DNA of 64,000 bases from a phage: NCBI GenBank assembly GCA_014816185.1, contig GCA_014816185.1_4095.1. One strand, written 5' to 3'. Of this stretch, positions 58,780-63,440 are shown in pieces. Under the pieces are notes generated by a model that made no database searches, had not been told where the DNA came from, and saw only the letters and a program-made list of their open reading frames with translations. Both the position numbers and the translations under genes were made by a program. How positions within the stretch are numbered: position 1 is the first letter of the stretch; each line of letters begins with the position of its first letter.

Positions 58780-58840
58780 TATGCACCCGGTGGGCTTGAG
58801 TCTTTCTCGACTTGATGGAACTATTATACAGTACTGGAAA
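58780..58840. repeat. intergenic repeat TGCACCCGGTGGG...CAGTACTGG, copy 1
   Basis: Shares TGCACCCGGTGGG(C/T)TTAG ... TTGATG ... ATTAT.CAGTACTGG with copies near 60928 and 63348. Confidence 0.5.
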
Positions 58841-59223
58841 AATAAAGCAATACCCTGGATGAAAAAAGTTTTAATTAATTTGCTTGCTATCCTGGGCCGG
58901 ACTATGGTACTATATTTCAGTACTGAGAAAGTGCGTTAACCTGCTAGGGTGCGGGAGTGTATCCTTTTTAAATTTTATGAATTTTGGACGGATCTTCCCA
59001 CCCCCTGGGGTATCCGCTTTCTCGCGTCTATGTAGTAATTATACGCTTTTTTAGTACTGAGTCAATAGCTAAAAACAAAATAATTGAAAATAATTTAACG
59101 CGTTTAAACGGCCTGTAACGCCCTGGATTGTTGGGAGTGGTGCAAATGTATAGCTTAGGTGTATTAATGCGTTAGAATGCGATTGAGGCCGTTTTACGGG
59201 GTGTAGTAGTGATTTGGTTGATT

Positions 59224-59310
59224 CAGTACTGAATAATAGTACTCCTATATAGAAAGATAGTTCCCCTGGATGGTTGCAGTACTGAATAATAGTACTCCTA
59301 TATAGAAAGA
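59224..59310. repeat. 34-bp direct repeat, two copies
   Basis: CAGTACTGAATAATAGTACTCCTATATAGAAAGA at 59224-59257 and 59277-59310. Confidence 0.6.
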
Positions 59311-59341
59311 AAACTATTTTAAAAGTATTTGTAGAAAGTAC

Positions 59342-59400
59342 TTGCACCGTACTGATAAAAGCGTATAATGTTTTACATCGAGAGCGGGAACACTTCCCGC
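59342..59400 (+). promoter_or_regulatory. promoter plus 5' leader hairpin cassette
   Basis: TTGCAC - 16 nt - TATAAT then GCGGGAA-CAC-TTCCCGC hairpin. Confidence 0.55.
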
Positions 59401-59424
59401 TACACATTAAGAGAGATTAAAACG

Positions 59425-59787
59425 ATGGCGACTCAAATCAATAAAATCATGCTTAACCTGGTAAACTTCCGCGAAGAGATGAAAGGTCTTCCGGCTGAAA
59501 CTGTAAAAATTCACATTGCAGCTTATCGGGAACTTATTGCAATGTTGCCGCTTAAGCGTGAACAATACGCCGCTACTTTGATGCTTGATTCAATGATCCA
59601 TGTAATGATCTCAAATGATTTAACGATGGTTTATCAGTACATGGGAGAAAATTTCGCGGTGTGTAGTAAGCCAGTACCAGGGATGGCAACTACTGAGGAA
59701 TTGCACGGTTTAAATTTAAAGCAAGATGCATGGGATAATATGCCTCGTTTCCTGGTATGGGCTGACAGTGGCAAAATTTACAAATAA
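59425..59787 (+). CDS. hypothetical protein
   Basis: Track start at 59368 lies in the -10; moved to MATQINK after AGAGAG. Confidence 0.55.
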   Translation: MATQINKIMLNLVNFREEMKGLPAETVKIHIAAYRELIAMLPLKREQYAATLMLDSMIHVMISNDLTMVYQYMGENFAVCSKPVPGMATTEELHGLNLKQDAWDNMPRFLVWADSGKIYK

Positions 59788-59801
59788 GTTTAATAAAGTA
59801 C

Positions 59802-59860
59802 TTGCATACTAAGTTAAAACAAGTATAATACTTTCTATCAGGTGGGGAATAGTTCCCCAC
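59802..59860 (+). promoter_or_regulatory. promoter plus 5' leader hairpin cassette
   Basis: TTGCAT - 16 nt - TATAAT then GTGGGGAA-TAG-TTCCCCAC hairpin. Confidence 0.55.
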
Positions 59861-59879
59861 TATATAAGAGGATTAAAAA

Positions 59880-60119
59880 ATGGCTAAATCAAAAATGTTC
59901 TTAGGTCACAAAAACAAAACTCATTGGAATGTAAGCCTGTGGATTAATAACGATGAGGGATTGTATCGGTTGGCCCTGGATTTTATTAACGACAACACTA
60001 ATCGCAATGATGCGGCCCGTCATATGATGTTATTTTTAGAACAGACTGGACAAGATAAAACACCGGACGGATTCAAATATAGCACTACTGCGATCCGTGC
60101 GGCGATGGTTGGAATGTAA
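59880..60119 (+). CDS. hypothetical 79-aa protein, paralog of 61918 ORF
   Basis: GHKNKTHWNVSLWINN...TPDGFKYSTTAIRAAMVGM shared with the 61918 gene. Confidence 0.6.
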   Translation: MAKSKMFLGHKNKTHWNVSLWINNDEGLYRLALDFINDNTNRNDAARHMMLFLEQTGQDKTPDGFKYSTTAIRAAMVGM

Positions 60120-60204
60120 TAGAATTTATTTAAAGTACTATCATTTTTTGCGATAGTACTTTATAATAGTGTTTTATTCATACACCAACGATAAGGGTAA
60201 CAGC

Positions 60205-60471
60205 ATGAATATTAAGTATTTTGCGACGCGTGAACAAGCTCGGATCGCCGCACGCCAGGACGGGGCAACGTTTAAAGATATGGGCGTACAATCGGAACGT
60301 GGTAAACGTTGGGCCATTGTAAAGCGTAGTACCGCCAGATCATTACAGTACTGGTTAGCGGCCTTAAAAAGACCCGATAGTGTATCGCGACGAGTGGTAG
60401 AAATAAAGCTCGACCGAAAGGGCAACCGCGTGACCGTGTACCGTACTAAAAAGATTGCAGTACTTGAATAA
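60205..60471 (+). CDS. hypothetical basic protein
   Basis: Start moved to MNIKYFATREQ after AAGGG. Confidence 0.5.
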   Translation: MNIKYFATREQARIAARQDGATFKDMGVQSERGKRWAIVKRSTARSLQYWLAALKRPDSVSRRVVEIKLDRKGNRVTVYRTKKIAVLE

Positions 60472-60478
60472 AAAGTAC

Positions 60479-60537
60479 TTGCAAACTATGTTTAATGGCG
60501 TATAATGTTTTACATCGAGAGCGGGAACACTTCCCGC
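60479..60537 (+). promoter_or_regulatory. promoter plus 5' leader hairpin cassette
   Basis: AAAGTACTTGCAA - 16 nt - TATAAT then GCGGGAA-CAC-TTCCCGC. Confidence 0.6.
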
Positions 60538-60558
60538 CTATAACCTGGAGTAATAAAA

Positions 60559-60789
60559 ATGACTAATATGTATATGACTGAAGTTAAAACCGTAAAAGAT
60601 ACTACCACTAATAAAACTACTTACTTACAGCGGATCTGTGGTGTATGGCAACGTATCAGCAAATCAAAGTACTTTAAATTAACATCATATGCCAATCGTT
60701 CGGATTCATTCAGTACTGAAATAAAAGGTAATAAAGTACACCAATACGGCACTTATTATTATTATAGCCTGGACGCGATTGCAGTATAA
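60559..60789 (+). CDS. hypothetical protein
   Basis: SD GGAG. Confidence 0.55.
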   Translation: MTNMYMTEVKTVKDTTTNKTTYLQRICGVWQRISKSKYFKLTSYANRSDSFSTEIKGNKVHQYGTYYYYSLDAIAV

Positions 60790-61827: not shown

Positions 61828-61838
61828 TTTAAAAAGTA

Positions 61839-61899
61839 CTTGCAAACTAAGTTTAAAAGCGTATAATACTTTATATCGAGGCGGGGAGTGGTTCCCCGC
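61839..61899 (+). promoter_or_regulatory. promoter plus 5' leader hairpin cassette
   Basis: TTGCAA - 17 nt - TATAAT then GCGGGGA-GTGGT-TCCCCGC. Confidence 0.6.
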
Positions 61900-61917
61900 T
61901 CAAACGAGGATTTAAAA

Positions 61918-62157
61918 ATGGCTAGTACTAAAACTTACAACGGTCACAAAAACAAAACTCATTGGAATGTTTCCTTATGGATTAATAACGGTGAGTCATT
62001 GTATCGGCTTGCACAAAGTTGTATCGCACAAAGTAGAACTAAAGATATTGCAGCGGAATGTATGTACCGCAGATTAAAAGCCAACGGTACTACTACAACG
62101 CCGGACGGCTTTAAGTATAGCACTACTGCGATCCGTGCTGCAATGGTTGGAATGTAA
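61918..62157 (+). CDS. hypothetical 79-aa protein, paralog of 59880 ORF
   Basis: Start moved to MASTKTY after GAGGA. Confidence 0.6.
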   Translation: MASTKTYNGHKNKTHWNVSLWINNGESLYRLAQSCIAQSRTKDIAAECMYRRLKANGTTTTPDGFKYSTTAIRAAMVGM

Positions 62158-62214
62158 TATTCAGTACTGAGATAATGGCGGGTAATAGTTCCCGCCTTTA
62201 CTGAGGGTTATCTA

Positions 62215-62502
62215 ATGAGTAAAGTAATAAAGTACAATGTGTTAAGCAAATCATTGTCTATCAGTGAATGCACCGATGGTTTTTGGCTATTTGATGAAAC
62301 GCGTGGAATGAATTTAGCTATGCGTGAGAAAACGGCTGAGGCCGCATATGTTGAGGCACTGGAATACTACCAGGAACGTTTAAAGGAAGTAGAAGAAGAT
62401 TATAAAAGCCTCAAAGCGAAAGTAGATCATTTCGTCGGTCAATTAGTGGAAGACAACGACGAGGACGGGCACTACTGCGACCGTTGCGGATCTTACAGTT
62501 AA
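62215..62502 (+). CDS. hypothetical protein
   Basis: SD GAGGG; C-terminal CDRCGSYS. Confidence 0.55.
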   Translation: MSKVIKYNVLSKSLSISECTDGFWLFDETRGMNLAMREKTAEAAYVEALEYYQERLKEVEEDYKSLKAKVDHFVGQLVEDNDEDGHYCDRCGSYS

Positions 62503-62519
62503 GTACTAAGGATTATATA

Positions 62520-62732
62520 ATGAGTGATTTAATTGAACGTATCAAAGAGCTTGAAGAAAAAGAATTGCAGTTGATCGGGTTACGGAATAAAGTATTCCAT
62601 GATTTAGGTGGCTTTATTAATGCCTGGGATAGTGGCGATCCTGATGCGTTACCTGCTAACCGCCAGGCGATGATCAATGATGTGCGTGGTGTCTTTGAGT
62701 ATGTTTTAAAAGTACTAGACACTAAGCAATAA
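62520..62732 (+). CDS. hypothetical protein
   Basis: Start moved to MSDLIERIKELEEK after AAGGA. Confidence 0.5.
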   Translation: MSDLIERIKELEEKELQLIGLRNKVFHDLGGFINAWDSGDPDALPANRQAMINDVRGVFEYVLKVLDTKQ

Positions 62733-62793
62733 AGGCGTATAATACTTTATATTGGTACTGACAAACATTATAAGCGATTCAGGAGCTTTAATC

Positions 62794-62979
62794 ATGACAA
62801 CATTATCTGAGGTTATCCGCGAGCAAGCTGCAAAGGCTGGAATGACTGTTATCAATGTAGGGATCAAGATTGAGATCTCCCCTAACGAGTTGCAAGGGAT
62901 TCCCGATCCTACTAGCTGGGATCGTGCTGGGCGAATGATGCGTAATGCTTCATTACTGGACGGTACAAAATTTAATTAA
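62794..62979 (+). CDS. hypothetical protein
   Basis: Start moved to MTTLSEV after CAGGAG. Confidence 0.5.
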   Translation: MTTLSEVIREQAAKAGMTVINVGIKIEISPNELQGIPDPTSWDRAGRMMRNASLLDGTKFN

Positions 62980-62985
62980 AAGTAC

Positions 62986-63044
62986 TTGCAATTAGTTTTC
63001 AGTACTGTATAATGGTTTACATCAAAGGGAGAAATGGTTCTCCC
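62986..63044 (+). promoter_or_regulatory. promoter plus 5' leader hairpin cassette
   Basis: TTGCAA - 16 nt ending in CAGTACTG - TATAAT then GGGAGAA-ATGG-TTCTCCC. Confidence 0.6.
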
Positions 63045-63063
63045 TGGTAATGAGGAAAATACA

Positions 63064-63285
63064 ATGGCTAATATCACTACTCTTTCCCAACTGGAAGCAC
63101 TGGTTAAATCTATGCGGGAACATGCCGACAAAATCGGCGTACAAGATCCAGCCGTTTGCTTCTGCGACGAATTGAATGATGATACACTGGTAATAGCAGA
63201 AGTCCAGGACGTTTCTAACTATTCCTCGCGTTACACTGGCGGCGTAGCAAATAAAGGCGACTTCTGTTTATACCTTACAAAATAA
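63064..63285 (+). CDS. hypothetical protein
   Basis: Start moved to MANITTLSQ after GAGGA. Confidence 0.55.
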   Translation: MANITTLSQLEALVKSMREHADKIGVQDPAVCFCDELNDDTLVIAEVQDVSNYSSRYTGGVANKGDFCLYLTK

Positions 63286-63347
63286 CAACGCGGGGAGATA
63301 ATAACTCCCCGTTACTTTTTCAGTACTGAATCATTTAATAGACGGAT

Positions 63348-63440
63348 ATATGCACCCGGTGGGTTAGTGACTGTTTCGTCTTGATGTAGTAATTATGCCA
63401 GTACTGGATGCAGTTGTCAACAATTATTTTTCAAATACTT
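63348..63440. repeat. intergenic repeat TGCACCCGGTGGG...CAGTACTGG, copy 3
   Basis: Third copy. Confidence 0.5.

Follow-up and report, generated by a model that had tools for sequence, protein, structure and literature searches.

Promoter-early stem-loop (PeSL) cassettes have been described from T4-type phages (Arbiol et al. 2010, PMC2839356; Comeau et al. 2014, PMC4122927). They are repeated cassettes in the intergenic DNA of early regions that are plastic and rich in small ORFan genes, they combine a strong sigma-70-like promoter with an A/T-rich upstream region, and their stem-loop can overlap the -35 element or the spacer and terminate upstream transcription. The 3' end of each cassette is formed by the ribosome-binding site and start codon of the gene that follows, and the cassettes have no conserved transcribed module. 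Recombination at them inserts, deletes or replaces the ORFans alongside. The lambda nut sites and HK022 put RNAs are processive antitermination signals in nascent RNA, while Qrr and OmrA/B are sibling small-RNA families with a shared seed, which are typically multi-copy and join an invariant short motif to a variable remainder. REP and BIME elements, known from enterobacterial chromosomes, are short intergenic repeats that form hairpins; they lie in either orientation, and also as inverted copies paired across fixed spacers. In the Pseudomonas phage PA5oct, ncRNA001 and ncRNA002 (236-451 nt) come from the terminal repeat and account for 1.2-5.1% of phage reads (PMC7318152).

The window analysed here, a 64,000-nucleotide stretch of an Asteriusvirus jumbo coliphage, carries six copies of what is called here the F unit, all inside 58,759-63,420, which lies within the first 6 kb of a direct terminal repeat (DTR) of about 21 kb. 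F units are one previously undescribed unit that joins a strong host-type promoter to a short, conserved, folded RNA; no description of it was found in the published literature examined. A near-consensus sigma-70 promoter is followed by a 5' hairpin with a covarying stem and a purine-rich, often GNRA-like loop, then by the invariant box CCCAYNGGGTGC and a short G.U-rich hairpin. The genomic setting and the promoter with its A/T-rich upstream region are shared with PeSLs, and many sense copies of relatives may have a comparable stem-loop at the promoter. What sets F units apart from PeSLs is a non-coding core of about 55 nt, in which covarying hairpins accompany an invariant 12-mer. F units are also found facing either way and as convergent pairs, and they are conserved across genera. 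With nut and put elements they have in common a length of about 60 nt, a promoter-proximal position upstream of or among many intrinsic terminators, and a small hairpin with a purine-rich GNRA-like loop accompanied by a conserved linear or second-hairpin element. However, they show no sequence similarity to boxA or boxB and run from hairpin to box, unlike nut, and their two short stems differ from those of put in order and sequence. No N-like protein was identified either, and many copies face against genes or each other.

A sequence-only reading of this DNA had proposed three copies of one intergenic repeat and two of a second. The three copies exist: TGCACCCGGTGGG is found exactly on the + strand at 58782, 60930 and 63351, and allowing up to 2 mismatches there are 4 matches in the 64-kb window against 0.22 expected, a number that none of 100 shuffles reached. 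AGGGTGCGGGAGTGTATC is likewise exact at 58946 and 60879, close to the positions first given (about 58938 and 60878; 0.02 expected by chance), but it is no separate repeat, as it belongs to the same family on the + strand (covariance model, CM, matches at + 60850-60909 and + 58915-58976). Three plus two copies thereby become six units, including an additional degenerate minus-strand copy at 58974-59034, and the picture of a dispersed intergenic repeat in both orientations holds. The stretch ATTAT.CAGTACTGG common to the copies and the further likeness of two of them (..TGTCAA) are real as well, but ATTAT and TGTCAA are the reverse complements of the -10 and -35 hexamers, and the repeat is thus a minus-strand promoter with a transcribed leader.

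Unit A, the first of the three original copies, is read on the minus strand. Its promoter (58823-58851) has a -35-like ATTGCT at 58846-58851, CAGTACTG in the spacer and the -10 TATAAT at 58823-58828, and the promoter scan reports it as TTGCTT with a 16-nt spacer (9/12 to consensus). The transcribed core at 58759-58819 (47.2 bits, E 1.5e-10) contains the hairpin AGTC-GAGAAA-GACT (58799-58812), the box CCCACCGGGTGC (58783-58794) and the 3' arm ACGCCC (58771-58776). The minus-strand unit A2, which had been missed, has the promoter TTGACT-16-TATAAT (59038-59065, 11/12) and a core at 58974-59034 (32.0 bits, E 3.5e-6) with the hairpin CGC-GAGAAA-GCG (59015-59026), a degenerate box CCCAGGGGGTGG (58998-59009) and the 3' arm CCGTCC. 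Its convergent partner on the plus strand, unit A' (58884-58976), is weak and degenerate (18.3 bits, E 0.03). It contains the supposed second repeat at 58946-58963 and consists of TTGCTA-18-TACTAT, the partial box CTAGGGTGC and the terminator-like hairpin AGGGTGCG-GGAG-TGTATCCT followed by T5.

The plus-strand unit B+ is the top CM match of the window (core 60850-60909, 50.8 bits, E 1.3e-11). Its promoter region (60799-60848) comprises an upstream motif AAATCTTTACAA (60799-60810), the -35 TTGACT (60820-60825), CAGTACTG in the spacer and a TG-extended -10 CATAAT (60843-60848), and its core comprises the hairpin GGC-AGATAA-GCC (60858-60869), the box CCCATAGGGTGC (60874-60885) and the 3' arm GTATCT (60892-60897), with the other instance of the supposed second repeat at 60879-60896. 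Unit B-, the second original copy, converges on it from the minus strand so that the 3' ends overlap by 3 nt. It is a short form without the 5' hairpin (core 60907-60956, 30.4 bits; box CCCACCGGGTGC at 60931-60942; 3' arm GTAACT), with the promoter TTGACA-17-(TG)CATAAT at 60964-60992 (11/12). Across the pair (60850-61004), a long hairpin is predicted for the transcript of either strand (z -3.5 and -3.8). The third original copy, unit C, lies on the minus strand with the same promoter arrangement, TTGACA-17-(TG)CATAAT (63392-63420, 11/12), and a core at 63328-63388 (40.8 bits, E 1e-8) made up of the hairpin GAC-GAAACA-GTC (63369-63380), the box CCCACCGGGTGC (63352-63363) and the 3' arm CCGTCT (63340-63345). 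Downstream, the hairpin CGGGGAG-TTATTAT-CTCCCCG (63291-63311, listed on the minus strand) is terminator-like on both strands and also ends the + strand gene 63064-63285. The unit C transcript is predicted to stop there, which would give an RNA of about 100-105 nt, and the same arrangement of promoter, about 100 nt and terminator is seen in its counterparts in RaK2 and Muenster.

Promoters are conserved throughout the family. A match of at least 10/12 to TTGACA-N16-18-TATAAT stands at a fixed place upstream of the core in 61/78 copies, the mean promoter score is 10.0 upstream versus 6.7 on the opposite side and 6.9 in shuffles, and in 72/78 copies the core begins 1-3 nt past the -10 hexamer. 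The position matrix contains the -35, an extended -10 and an A-rich region upstream (-41 to -35), and the promoters of the window were also picked up independently of the family-wide scan. Many sense copies of relatives have a predicted stem-loop at the promoter (GGGGTTGAC-ttcg-GTCGCCCC-TTTT). In unit B+ a hairpin at 60813-60843 was read by eye, and there is none at units A, A2 and C. The -35 TTGAC of many sense copies lies inside the terminator hairpin of the upstream gene, which matches a PeSL subclass (PMC2839356). Possibly, then, F units are plain PeSL-type terminator/promoter cassettes, alike because of regulatory signals and of spread and homogenisation by recombination, with a functionless transcribed part; the plastic early region of small ORFan genes is the same setting (PMC2839356, PMC4122927), each such gene having a sigma-70 promoter and a stem-loop (families D1-D3). 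This is nevertheless improbable, as the most conserved part is the 12-mer, which lies downstream of the start site, is common to eight genera and is absent from ordinary gene promoters of the same region. Covarying stems, moreover, imply selection on structure, and a Shine-Dalgarno sequence and start codon end PeSLs but not F units: among the copies no conserved ATG or ribosome-binding site follows the promoter, and the core is non-coding.

Among 77 distinct copies, which as paralogues and orthologues are non-independent samples, both sides change in 4/4 pairs of helix 1, with 114 compensatory cells against 46.5 +/- 4.8 in shuffles (0/500 reach 114), and pairing over the whole structure amounts to 89%, compared with 33-60% after sliding of the partners. 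The gapless seed alignment, anchored only on the box, gives the same covariation picture, although the hairpin was a condition for picking its sequences, and alignment A4 is model-fitted, so that both lean towards structure. Helix 2 (GGGUG/YRYCY) is 95% paired; G.U accounts for 194 cells and A.C for 0. Left unaided, RNAalifold chooses helix 1 together with RCCC-AYN-GGGU, in which the closing pair is A-U in 39 copies and G.U in 34; a further 4 changes weaken or alter the innermost pair (C-G to U.G in 3 copies, to U-A in 1). Such G.U patterns in the second hairpin indicate that its pairing works only on the strand transcribed from the promoter. Helix 2 and helix 2' are both short and cannot form together, and since the box does not vary, most of their changes fall on a single side. 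Helix 1 is without strand asymmetry (G.U 16 vs A.C 11) and could equally be a DNA hairpin.

Variation of this kind, compensatory in the stems and including 1-nt indels without codon-like conservation, also bears on whether the copies are fragments of unannotated paralogous protein genes. Short "hypothetical proteins" are annotated over units in some records (e.g. 121Q gene 270 over the B pair), but the copies have neither a start codon nor a reading frame in common, stops occur within the conserved part (GTAGCCC, CTAACCC), the overlapping ORFs are only mechanical (25-56 aa), and the ORFs beside the units fall into separate PHROG families. The chance of a coding origin is practically negligible. 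The idea that a protein of phage or host origin binds the units as double-stranded DNA, at an operator or roadblock placed immediately after a strong promoter, deserves more weight but is still quite improbable. The inverted ACCC..GGGT in the box would suit it, as would the palindrome AGTACT, present up to 25 nt past the core in 38/79 copies versus 15% expected, and the 3' arm, since YRTCTA is the reverse complement of the units of an array at 58487-58582 and thus allows a DNA-level reading of the arm. In Eneladusvirus copies, however, the CCC-to-GGG spacing changes from 3 to 4 nt (CCCTATAGGG), which a hairpin loop would tolerate and a dimeric DNA binder would not. Furthermore, the "half-sites" of helix 2 match only via G.T pairs, and helix 1 varies freely in sequence provided that pairing is kept. 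The protein-binding DNA site proposed by the sequence-only reading is not the best fit: every copy has its own sigma-70 promoter at a fixed distance, and the conserved stretch is found past the predicted start, with stems that covary or vary through one-strand-only G.U/G-C changes.

The covariance model finds 79 copies at ten loci in eight genera of Rak2-like phages, about 10 copies per terminal repeat of these giant phages, in both directions and inside the DTR in every genome sampled. Carriers are Asteriusvirus, Alcyoneusvirus, the Salmonella 7t3/Munch group (BLAST only), fENko-Kae01, Eneladusvirus, Mimasvirus and Hallingskeid. With filters off, the non-DTR part of the window (57.7 kb) gave no significant CM matches, the DTR of PA5oct gave none, and about 45 unrelated viral contigs that share a 15-mer by chance held no F units by CM. 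Across the whole window, a tRNA-Thr alone reached the gathering score of Rfam, and a comparison of 57600-64000 with E values up to 5 gave no relevant match. Of the 79 copies, 38 are sense singles that precede early genes, 15 are antisense singles, and the rest form 13 convergent pairs, at discrete spacings of -3, 8, 15 and 19 nt. Such inverted pairs, together with dispersal between genes in both orientations, recall REP/BIME elements and would fit non-autonomous mobile elements (MITE- or REP/BIME-like) inserting into intergenic DNA. Yet REPs have no promoter, while F units have one, together with an invariant non-palindromic box and confinement to one region of the phage genome, the DTR of a single clade. 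No consistent target-site duplications or flanking direct repeats were found around the copies (only unit C shares an AT-rich 8-mer, which 12/500 shuffles reach), terminal inverted repeats are absent, and copy positions are identical in the three Asteriusvirus genomes vB_Ec-M-J, SP27 and 121Q, so that the suggestion of a small mobile element in the transposon sense has become very improbable.

The origins of T4 consist of a promoter and a downstream element. F units might in the same way be primer or R-loop replication origins, as at T4 oriF/oriG or ColE1 RNA II, in which a G-rich RNA segment stays on the template and primes DNA synthesis, with convergent pairs as bidirectional origins. Rak2-like phages are distant relatives of T4 (PMC5259590), a convergent pair lies in the first 0.3-4 kb of five records from other genera, and the G-rich run GGGUGCGGAGGUG in the RNA is followed by AT-rich DNA. 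A convergent pair adjoins an iteron-like 8-bp-periodic array both in the window, where it is the array at 58487-58582, and in Yersinia phage fHe-Yen9-03. On the other hand, about 10 copies per repeat are many for origins, R-loops need neither hairpin covariation nor an invariant box, and no conserved unwinding element is obvious, which leaves this a long shot.

Taken together, the promoters at fixed distance, the conserved part downstream of them and the one-strand changes in the stems point to a transcribed RNA module, and F units are probably structured RNAs made as such. The best reading from sequence, favoured with some reserve, is that of a structured module transcribed early, either a leader or a small RNA, with a partner that recognises its invariant box. 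Each copy would be a small transcription unit, its sigma-70 promoter serving host RNA polymerase once the terminal repeat enters the cell, and its RNA would be produced in infection. This non-coding RNA of about 55 nt would start some 5 nt ahead of the short 5' hairpin, which a 4-nt linker separates from the box CCCAYNGGGUGC, and the G-rich half of the box would form a short hairpin, either RCCC-AYN-GGGU or GGGUG-N8-YRYCY. The box may be the recognition site of a trans-acting partner, likely a protein of phage or host binding at the RNA level, that acts on the F-unit RNA or on the polymerase making it.

If F units are such modules, a protein-recognised cis leader with an antitermination-like role is a tentative possibility, and so, to a similar degree, is some other function; a titrating or decoy small RNA is less probable, as is a base-pairing one. 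In sense copies, which make up most copies in relatives, the leader could mark transcripts running into the next early gene, perhaps for nut/put-like processive antitermination, and terminators are frequent in the DTR region. For most sense copies no terminator lies within 140 nt, and the next gene has its own promoter, which counts against a leader role, and antisense and convergent copies fit antitermination poorly. Most antisense singles seem to run into the terminator hairpin of the neighbouring gene; here, as in unit C, transcription would end at the neighbour's two-way terminator and give a separate small RNA about 100 nt long. From convergent pairs (B+/B-, A'/A2), mutually complementary RNAs that fold into long hairpins may arise.

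Sibling trans-acting small RNAs, with the box as a seed for host or phage mRNAs and a variable 5' hairpin that merely stabilises, would explain why several paralogous copies agree exactly in one short motif and vary elsewhere. Unit C and at least 5 of the 15 antisense singles are laid out like a canonical small-RNA gene, with a promoter and a Rho-independent terminator of their own on either side of about 100 nt, and one of the two folds leaves the CCCAYN half of the box unpaired. This alternative is unlikely, however, because 38 of the 79 copies are sense singles without a nearby terminator (36/38 lack the combination of own promoter and own terminator) that run into a gene, and half of the box lies within a hairpin in either fold. 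Sites complementary to the box in the 64-kb window are, apart from one 2-mismatch site at 20115, other F units. The PA5oct transcripts, which are abundant, resemble F units as non-coding elements of a jumbo-phage long terminal repeat, in a phage related to the Rak2-like clade, but they are longer and do not match the F-unit model, so that the likeness is only one of analogy; for enterobacterial Rak2-like phages, the searchable literature yielded no expression data. The region in which the units lie is itself mosaic among relatives.

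The window shares 97% identity with Escherichia phage SP27, and about 90 other records of Asteriusvirus, jumbo phages of roughly 350 kb within the Rak2-like group, also match it. The annotation of vB_Ec-M-J places the homologous stretch in a 21.5 kb direct terminal repeat (DTR), of which it makes up the first 6 kb, and PhageTerm together with restriction digests confirmed a repeat of 20,993 bp in fEgEco12 (PMC13070987). The annotated repeat of vB_Ec-M-J begins at position 1 of its record, a position that corresponds to about 57685 in the window (AGTAGGCAGAGGAAGTCTGCC...), and 57685-64000 is therefore the beginning of the DTR; the window sequence crosses the terminus because the terminal repeat was collapsed in the source assembly. 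The genes annotated in this stretch are all small + strand genes of unknown function, and nearly all genes of the ~20 kb Rak2-like terminal repeat carry the annotation 'hypothetical'. Each gene at the DTR start has its own promoter, AAAGTACTTGCAA-N16-TATAAT, followed by a 5' stem-loop (repeat families D1-D3). The full cassette, AAAGTACTTGCAA-N16-TATAAT-N5-ACAT and then a G/C-rich 5' stem-loop such as GCGGGAA-CAC-TTCCCGC, is present in ten copies between 59335 and 63806 (families D1-D3 and D18). One promoter plus stem-loop per gene is the layout published for the promoter-early stem-loop (PeSL) cassettes of T4-type phages (PMC2839356, PMC4122927); the gene-promoter cassettes are PeSL-like and separate from the F units, the family that is our main subject.

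The sequence-only reading had described three copies of an intergenic repeat here and a second, separate repeat. Its motifs are real, non-random and conserved: TGCACCCGGTGGG occurs exactly at 58782, 60930 and 63351, with four matches at up to two mismatches (0.22 expected; no shuffle reaches four), and AGGGTGCGGGAGTGTATC is exact at 58946 and 60879 (0.02 expected). The shared ATTAT.CAGTACTGG is seen in the alignment of the three copies, and ..TGTCAA in two of them. The description was accurate, but the strand was wrong and one family had been divided into two. In reverse complement the motif reads TTGACA-N17-(TG)CATAAT, followed after ~30 nt by CCCACCGGGTGC, a direction named F; a promoter scan places minus-strand promoters at 60992-60964 and 63420-63392 (11/12 to consensus) and a further one at 59065-59038. 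The supposed second repeat consists of further members of this family, with their F direction along the + strand. An F unit consists of a sigma-70 promoter, a 5' hairpin (helix 1), an invariant 12-nt box and a short G.U-rich hairpin, as laid out in unit B+ (60820-60909, + strand): TTGACT-17-CATAAT, hairpin GGC-AGATAA-GCC, box CCCATAGGGTGC and GGGAGT-GTATCT. The covariance model locates the cores of B+ (60850-60909) and of the weak unit A' (58915-58976) on the + strand, and those of A (58759-58819), A2 (58974-59034, missed by the earlier reading), B- (60907-60956) and C (63328-63388) on the minus strand; beyond these six, no match with E <1 was found in the 64 kb with filters off. Coding repeats or gene fragments were ruled out for the F units. 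As for tRNAs or known RNA families, ARAGORN and Rfam gave only a tRNA-Thr (TGT) at 837-910, the sole tRNA in the window, and a permissive Rfam scan of 57600-64000 returned nothing relevant. Mobile repeats of the REP/MITE kind would be another source of such copies, against which stands that the target-site duplications proposed as a check by the earlier reading are not found consistently around the units.

BLAST with the RaK2 copy recovered related sequence in 68 phage records, from phages of Escherichia, Salmonella, Klebsiella, Erwinia, Yersinia, Serratia, Pectobacterium and Cronobacter, and several matches fall beneath features annotated as terminal repeats. DTR regions were compared for RaK2, Muenster, fENko-Kae01, fHe-Yen9-03, Serratia BF, CBB, Hallingskeid, GAP32, 121Q and vB_Ec-M-J, using a gapless alignment anchored on the box and a covariance model from a 17-sequence seed. 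The model finds 79 F units in ten loci. In the vB_Ec-M-J DTR it detects ten clear units and a weak one (E 0.43), about 11 in all, and the 2.5 kb past the end of that DTR give no match. The terminal repeat of PA5oct has abundant ncRNAs (PMC7318152), which by model search are unrelated to F units (no match with E <1). An exact 15-mer scan of IMG/VR gave 60 loci, with model matches only in those from Rak2-like contigs, namely jumbo genomes of ~346-378 kb and one contig of 109 kb. The F-unit family is thus specific to the Rak2-like clade and, across the sampled sequences, to the DTR. A search for host targets of the box would be uninformative: a motif of 12-15 nt meets only chance matches in large collections; ~45 of the 60 viral loci with the exact 15-mer are unrelated. 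A link of the box to the physical terminus was dropped, as the Muenster box lies 16 nt from the predicted end but the termini of Asteriusvirus (~57685) and fENko-Kae01 have none. The published accounts of CBB, fEgEco12 and PA5oct and the two PeSL papers do not describe the F unit, and the searchable literature yielded no transcriptome of an enterobacterial Rak2-like phage.

Promoters are a constant part of the unit. A match of at least 10/12 to TTGACA-N16-18-TATAAT lies within the 50 nt upstream of 61 of 78 units, and in 72 of the 78 a distance of 1-3 nt separates the end of the -10 from the start of the model. The mean promoter score is 10.0 upstream of the units vs 6.7 on the opposite side and 6.9 in shuffles, and a position matrix of the upstream region recovers the -35, the extended -10 TG and an A-rich upstream stretch. 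In addition, 10 of the 14 occurrences of AAATCTTTACAA, in four genera, precede an F core at a distance of exactly 51 nt, or 50 nt in one case (window copy at 60799-60810); the motif is a candidate for a UP element or an activator site particular to a subset of F promoters.

The transcribed part shows conserved pairing. Helix 1, a hairpin of 3-5 bp starting ~5 nt past the predicted start, is built from at least 20 stem sequences at a fixed position, and its loop is 86% purine with a GNRA start in 30 of 79. All four of its pairs vary on both sides among 77 distinct copies, giving 114 compensatory cells vs 46.5 +/- 4.8 in shuffles (0/500 reach 114), and the whole structure is 89% paired vs 33-60% with partners slid, in copies that are not independent and an alignment (A4) fitted to a model whose seed was picked by eye; the seed alignment, anchored on the box, agrees with this. 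Helix 1 is without strand bias (16 G.U, 11 A.C). The G-rich half of the box has two pairing options. With YRYCY eight nt downstream, 95% is paired and changes run only from G.U to G-C and from U-A to U.G (194 G.U vs 0 A.C cells). With the C-rich half, RCCC-AYN-GGGU is the fold chosen by RNAalifold; 39 copies close it with A-U and 34 with G.U, and its innermost pair is weakened or changed in four (U.G in three, U-A in one). Such G.U patterns function only on the strand that the F promoter would transcribe. Double-stranded DNA operator sites are a competing account of the units, but Eneladusvirus copies carry a 4-nt loop (CCCTATAGGG) instead of the 3-nt loop, a change that is tolerated by a hairpin and not by a dimeric DNA binder.

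Arrangement differs among the 79 units, with 38 sense singles, 15 antisense singles and 26 units in 13 convergent pairs; in the Asteriusvirus DTR the first 6 kb hold mainly antisense units and the other 15 kb sense units. For many sense singles the -35 TTGAC sits within the terminator hairpin of the upstream gene, a PeSL-like composite. Only 2/38 have a terminator within 140 nt, so the sense transcripts would enter the next gene, itself equipped with a promoter. Most antisense singles head into the terminator hairpin of the upstream gene; the transcript of unit C would be ~100-105 nt long and stop at 63291-63311. The convergent pairs fall into 3'-end gap classes of -3 nt (7 pairs), 8 (2), 15 (3) and 19 (1). 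For B+/B-, the transcript of each strand is predicted to fold on itself as a long hairpin (-52.7 and -28.7 kcal/mol, with z -3.5 and -3.8). Five records of other genera have a convergent pair near their start, in the first 0.3-4 kb, and in the window the A'/A2 pair is 1.2-1.3 kb from the terminus. A rival, and rather improbable, reading of the units is that they are R-loop primer origins; the pairs look like bidirectional origins and, in the window and in fHe-Yen9-03, adjoin an 8-bp-periodic array.

The PeSL cassette is the closest known kind, and the F unit matches its promoter features and, in many sense copies, has a stem-loop at the promoter. The defining 3' end of a PeSL, a ribosome-binding site plus start codon, is missing from the F unit. 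Plain PeSL cassettes made alike by recombination would also give a uniform family, yet PeSLs are without a conserved transcribed core, whereas F units have one. The architecture of nut/put signals is similar and their sequence is not, and Rfam holds no match. Based on this comparison, we rate the F unit as a cassette of PeSL type with a non-coding RNA module of its own, found throughout the clade.

For the F unit, the layout, the conserved promoter, the distribution, the covarying stems and the strand-specific pairing are shown, and what it does we infer. It is likely a transcribed, structured RNA module: host polymerase would fire the near-consensus promoters at once after DNA entry, yielding RNA protected by its 5' hairpin, and the invariant box, identical across genera while its surroundings drift, would be recognised by a trans-acting partner. 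In the sense majority, the leader may mark the transcript or the polymerase, and the most economical role would be nut/put-like processive antitermination, in a region where nearly every gene is followed by a terminator. The natural product of antisense singles would be a discrete small RNA, the core of which might serve as decoy or base-pairing RNA; a base-pairing small-RNA family is a rival for the units as a whole. Each single function is doubtful overall, and would be a minority choice even if the RNA module is granted. It is rather improbable, in our estimate, that F units are a new multi-copy class of early phage RNA whose hairpin captures a conserved factor. In that case ~10 units per terminal repeat, or ~20 per packaged genome, would fire within seconds of entry, and the CCCAYNGGGUGC hairpin would catch a factor that is conserved either in Enterobacterales at large or within the phage clade. 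As antitermination, this would render the transcribing polymerase termination-resistant, put- or ops-like, with convergent pairs as collision switches shutting off early genes; as decoy, F RNA would titrate a host factor that acts in defence or in RNA decay.

As candidates for phage therapy, Rak2-like jumbo phages (Asteriusvirus, Alcyoneusvirus and relatives) are under study. With about ten promoter-equipped copies per repeat, in phages of eight host genera, the F unit offers a concrete handle on the first minutes of transcription, and it indicates that PeSL-like cassettes of promoter and stem-loop can bear a dedicated non-coding RNA. Gene 270 of 121Q (4084-4269 of the compared stretch) and other 'hypothetical protein' ORFs are annotated directly over F units or convergent pairs in several GenBank records; they are probably mis-annotations, and the covariance model lets annotators replace such spurious calls.

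Other repeats share this region. The 8-bp palindrome CAGTACTG occurs 60 times in the window (~1 expected), most densely at 57636-63406. ORFs of at least 100 aa take up 67% of the sequence, and 37 of the 60 copies lie outside them. The palindrome is found in promoter spacers right before the -10 (CAGTACTGTATAAT); AGTACT lies within 25 nt past the core in 38/79 F units (15% expected) and also within the gene-promoter upstream motif AAAGTACTTGC. It appears to be a binding site or signature spread over the whole genome. The ~2 kb at 57400-59420, without an annotated gene in SP27, hold three F units, tandem repeats and, on either strand, several sites that resemble promoters. Within the 1.7 kb non-coding DTR leader lies an array of 8/16/24-bp periodicity at 58487-58582 (wider ~58420-58600), with units CTAGACGG / CTGGATGG / CTAAACGG that on the minus strand (CGTCTA, CATCCA) are similar to the 3' arm in the hairpin of the F unit; the record of the Yersinia phage fHe-Yen9-03 opens with a similar array (positions 1-110). 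These are possibly iterons for replication, packaging or injection. A CRISPR-repeat mimic at ~58628-58656 (AGTTCCCC..GGGGATA), agreeing by hand at 17/29 positions with the E. coli type I-E repeat, was rejected as chance level: matches at least this good occur three times in the window, and the motif was seen in Asteriusvirus only. Paralogous 79-aa genes (DUF7249, phrog_871; families D6 and D17) at 59880-60119 and 61918-62157 are 76-89% identical in DNA, promoters included. Finally, repeats with a ~200-bp period and 73-74% identity at 56000-57310 (families D4, D10, D19 and D20) lie over small + strand genes annotated in SP27 and are probably tandem paralogous small genes.
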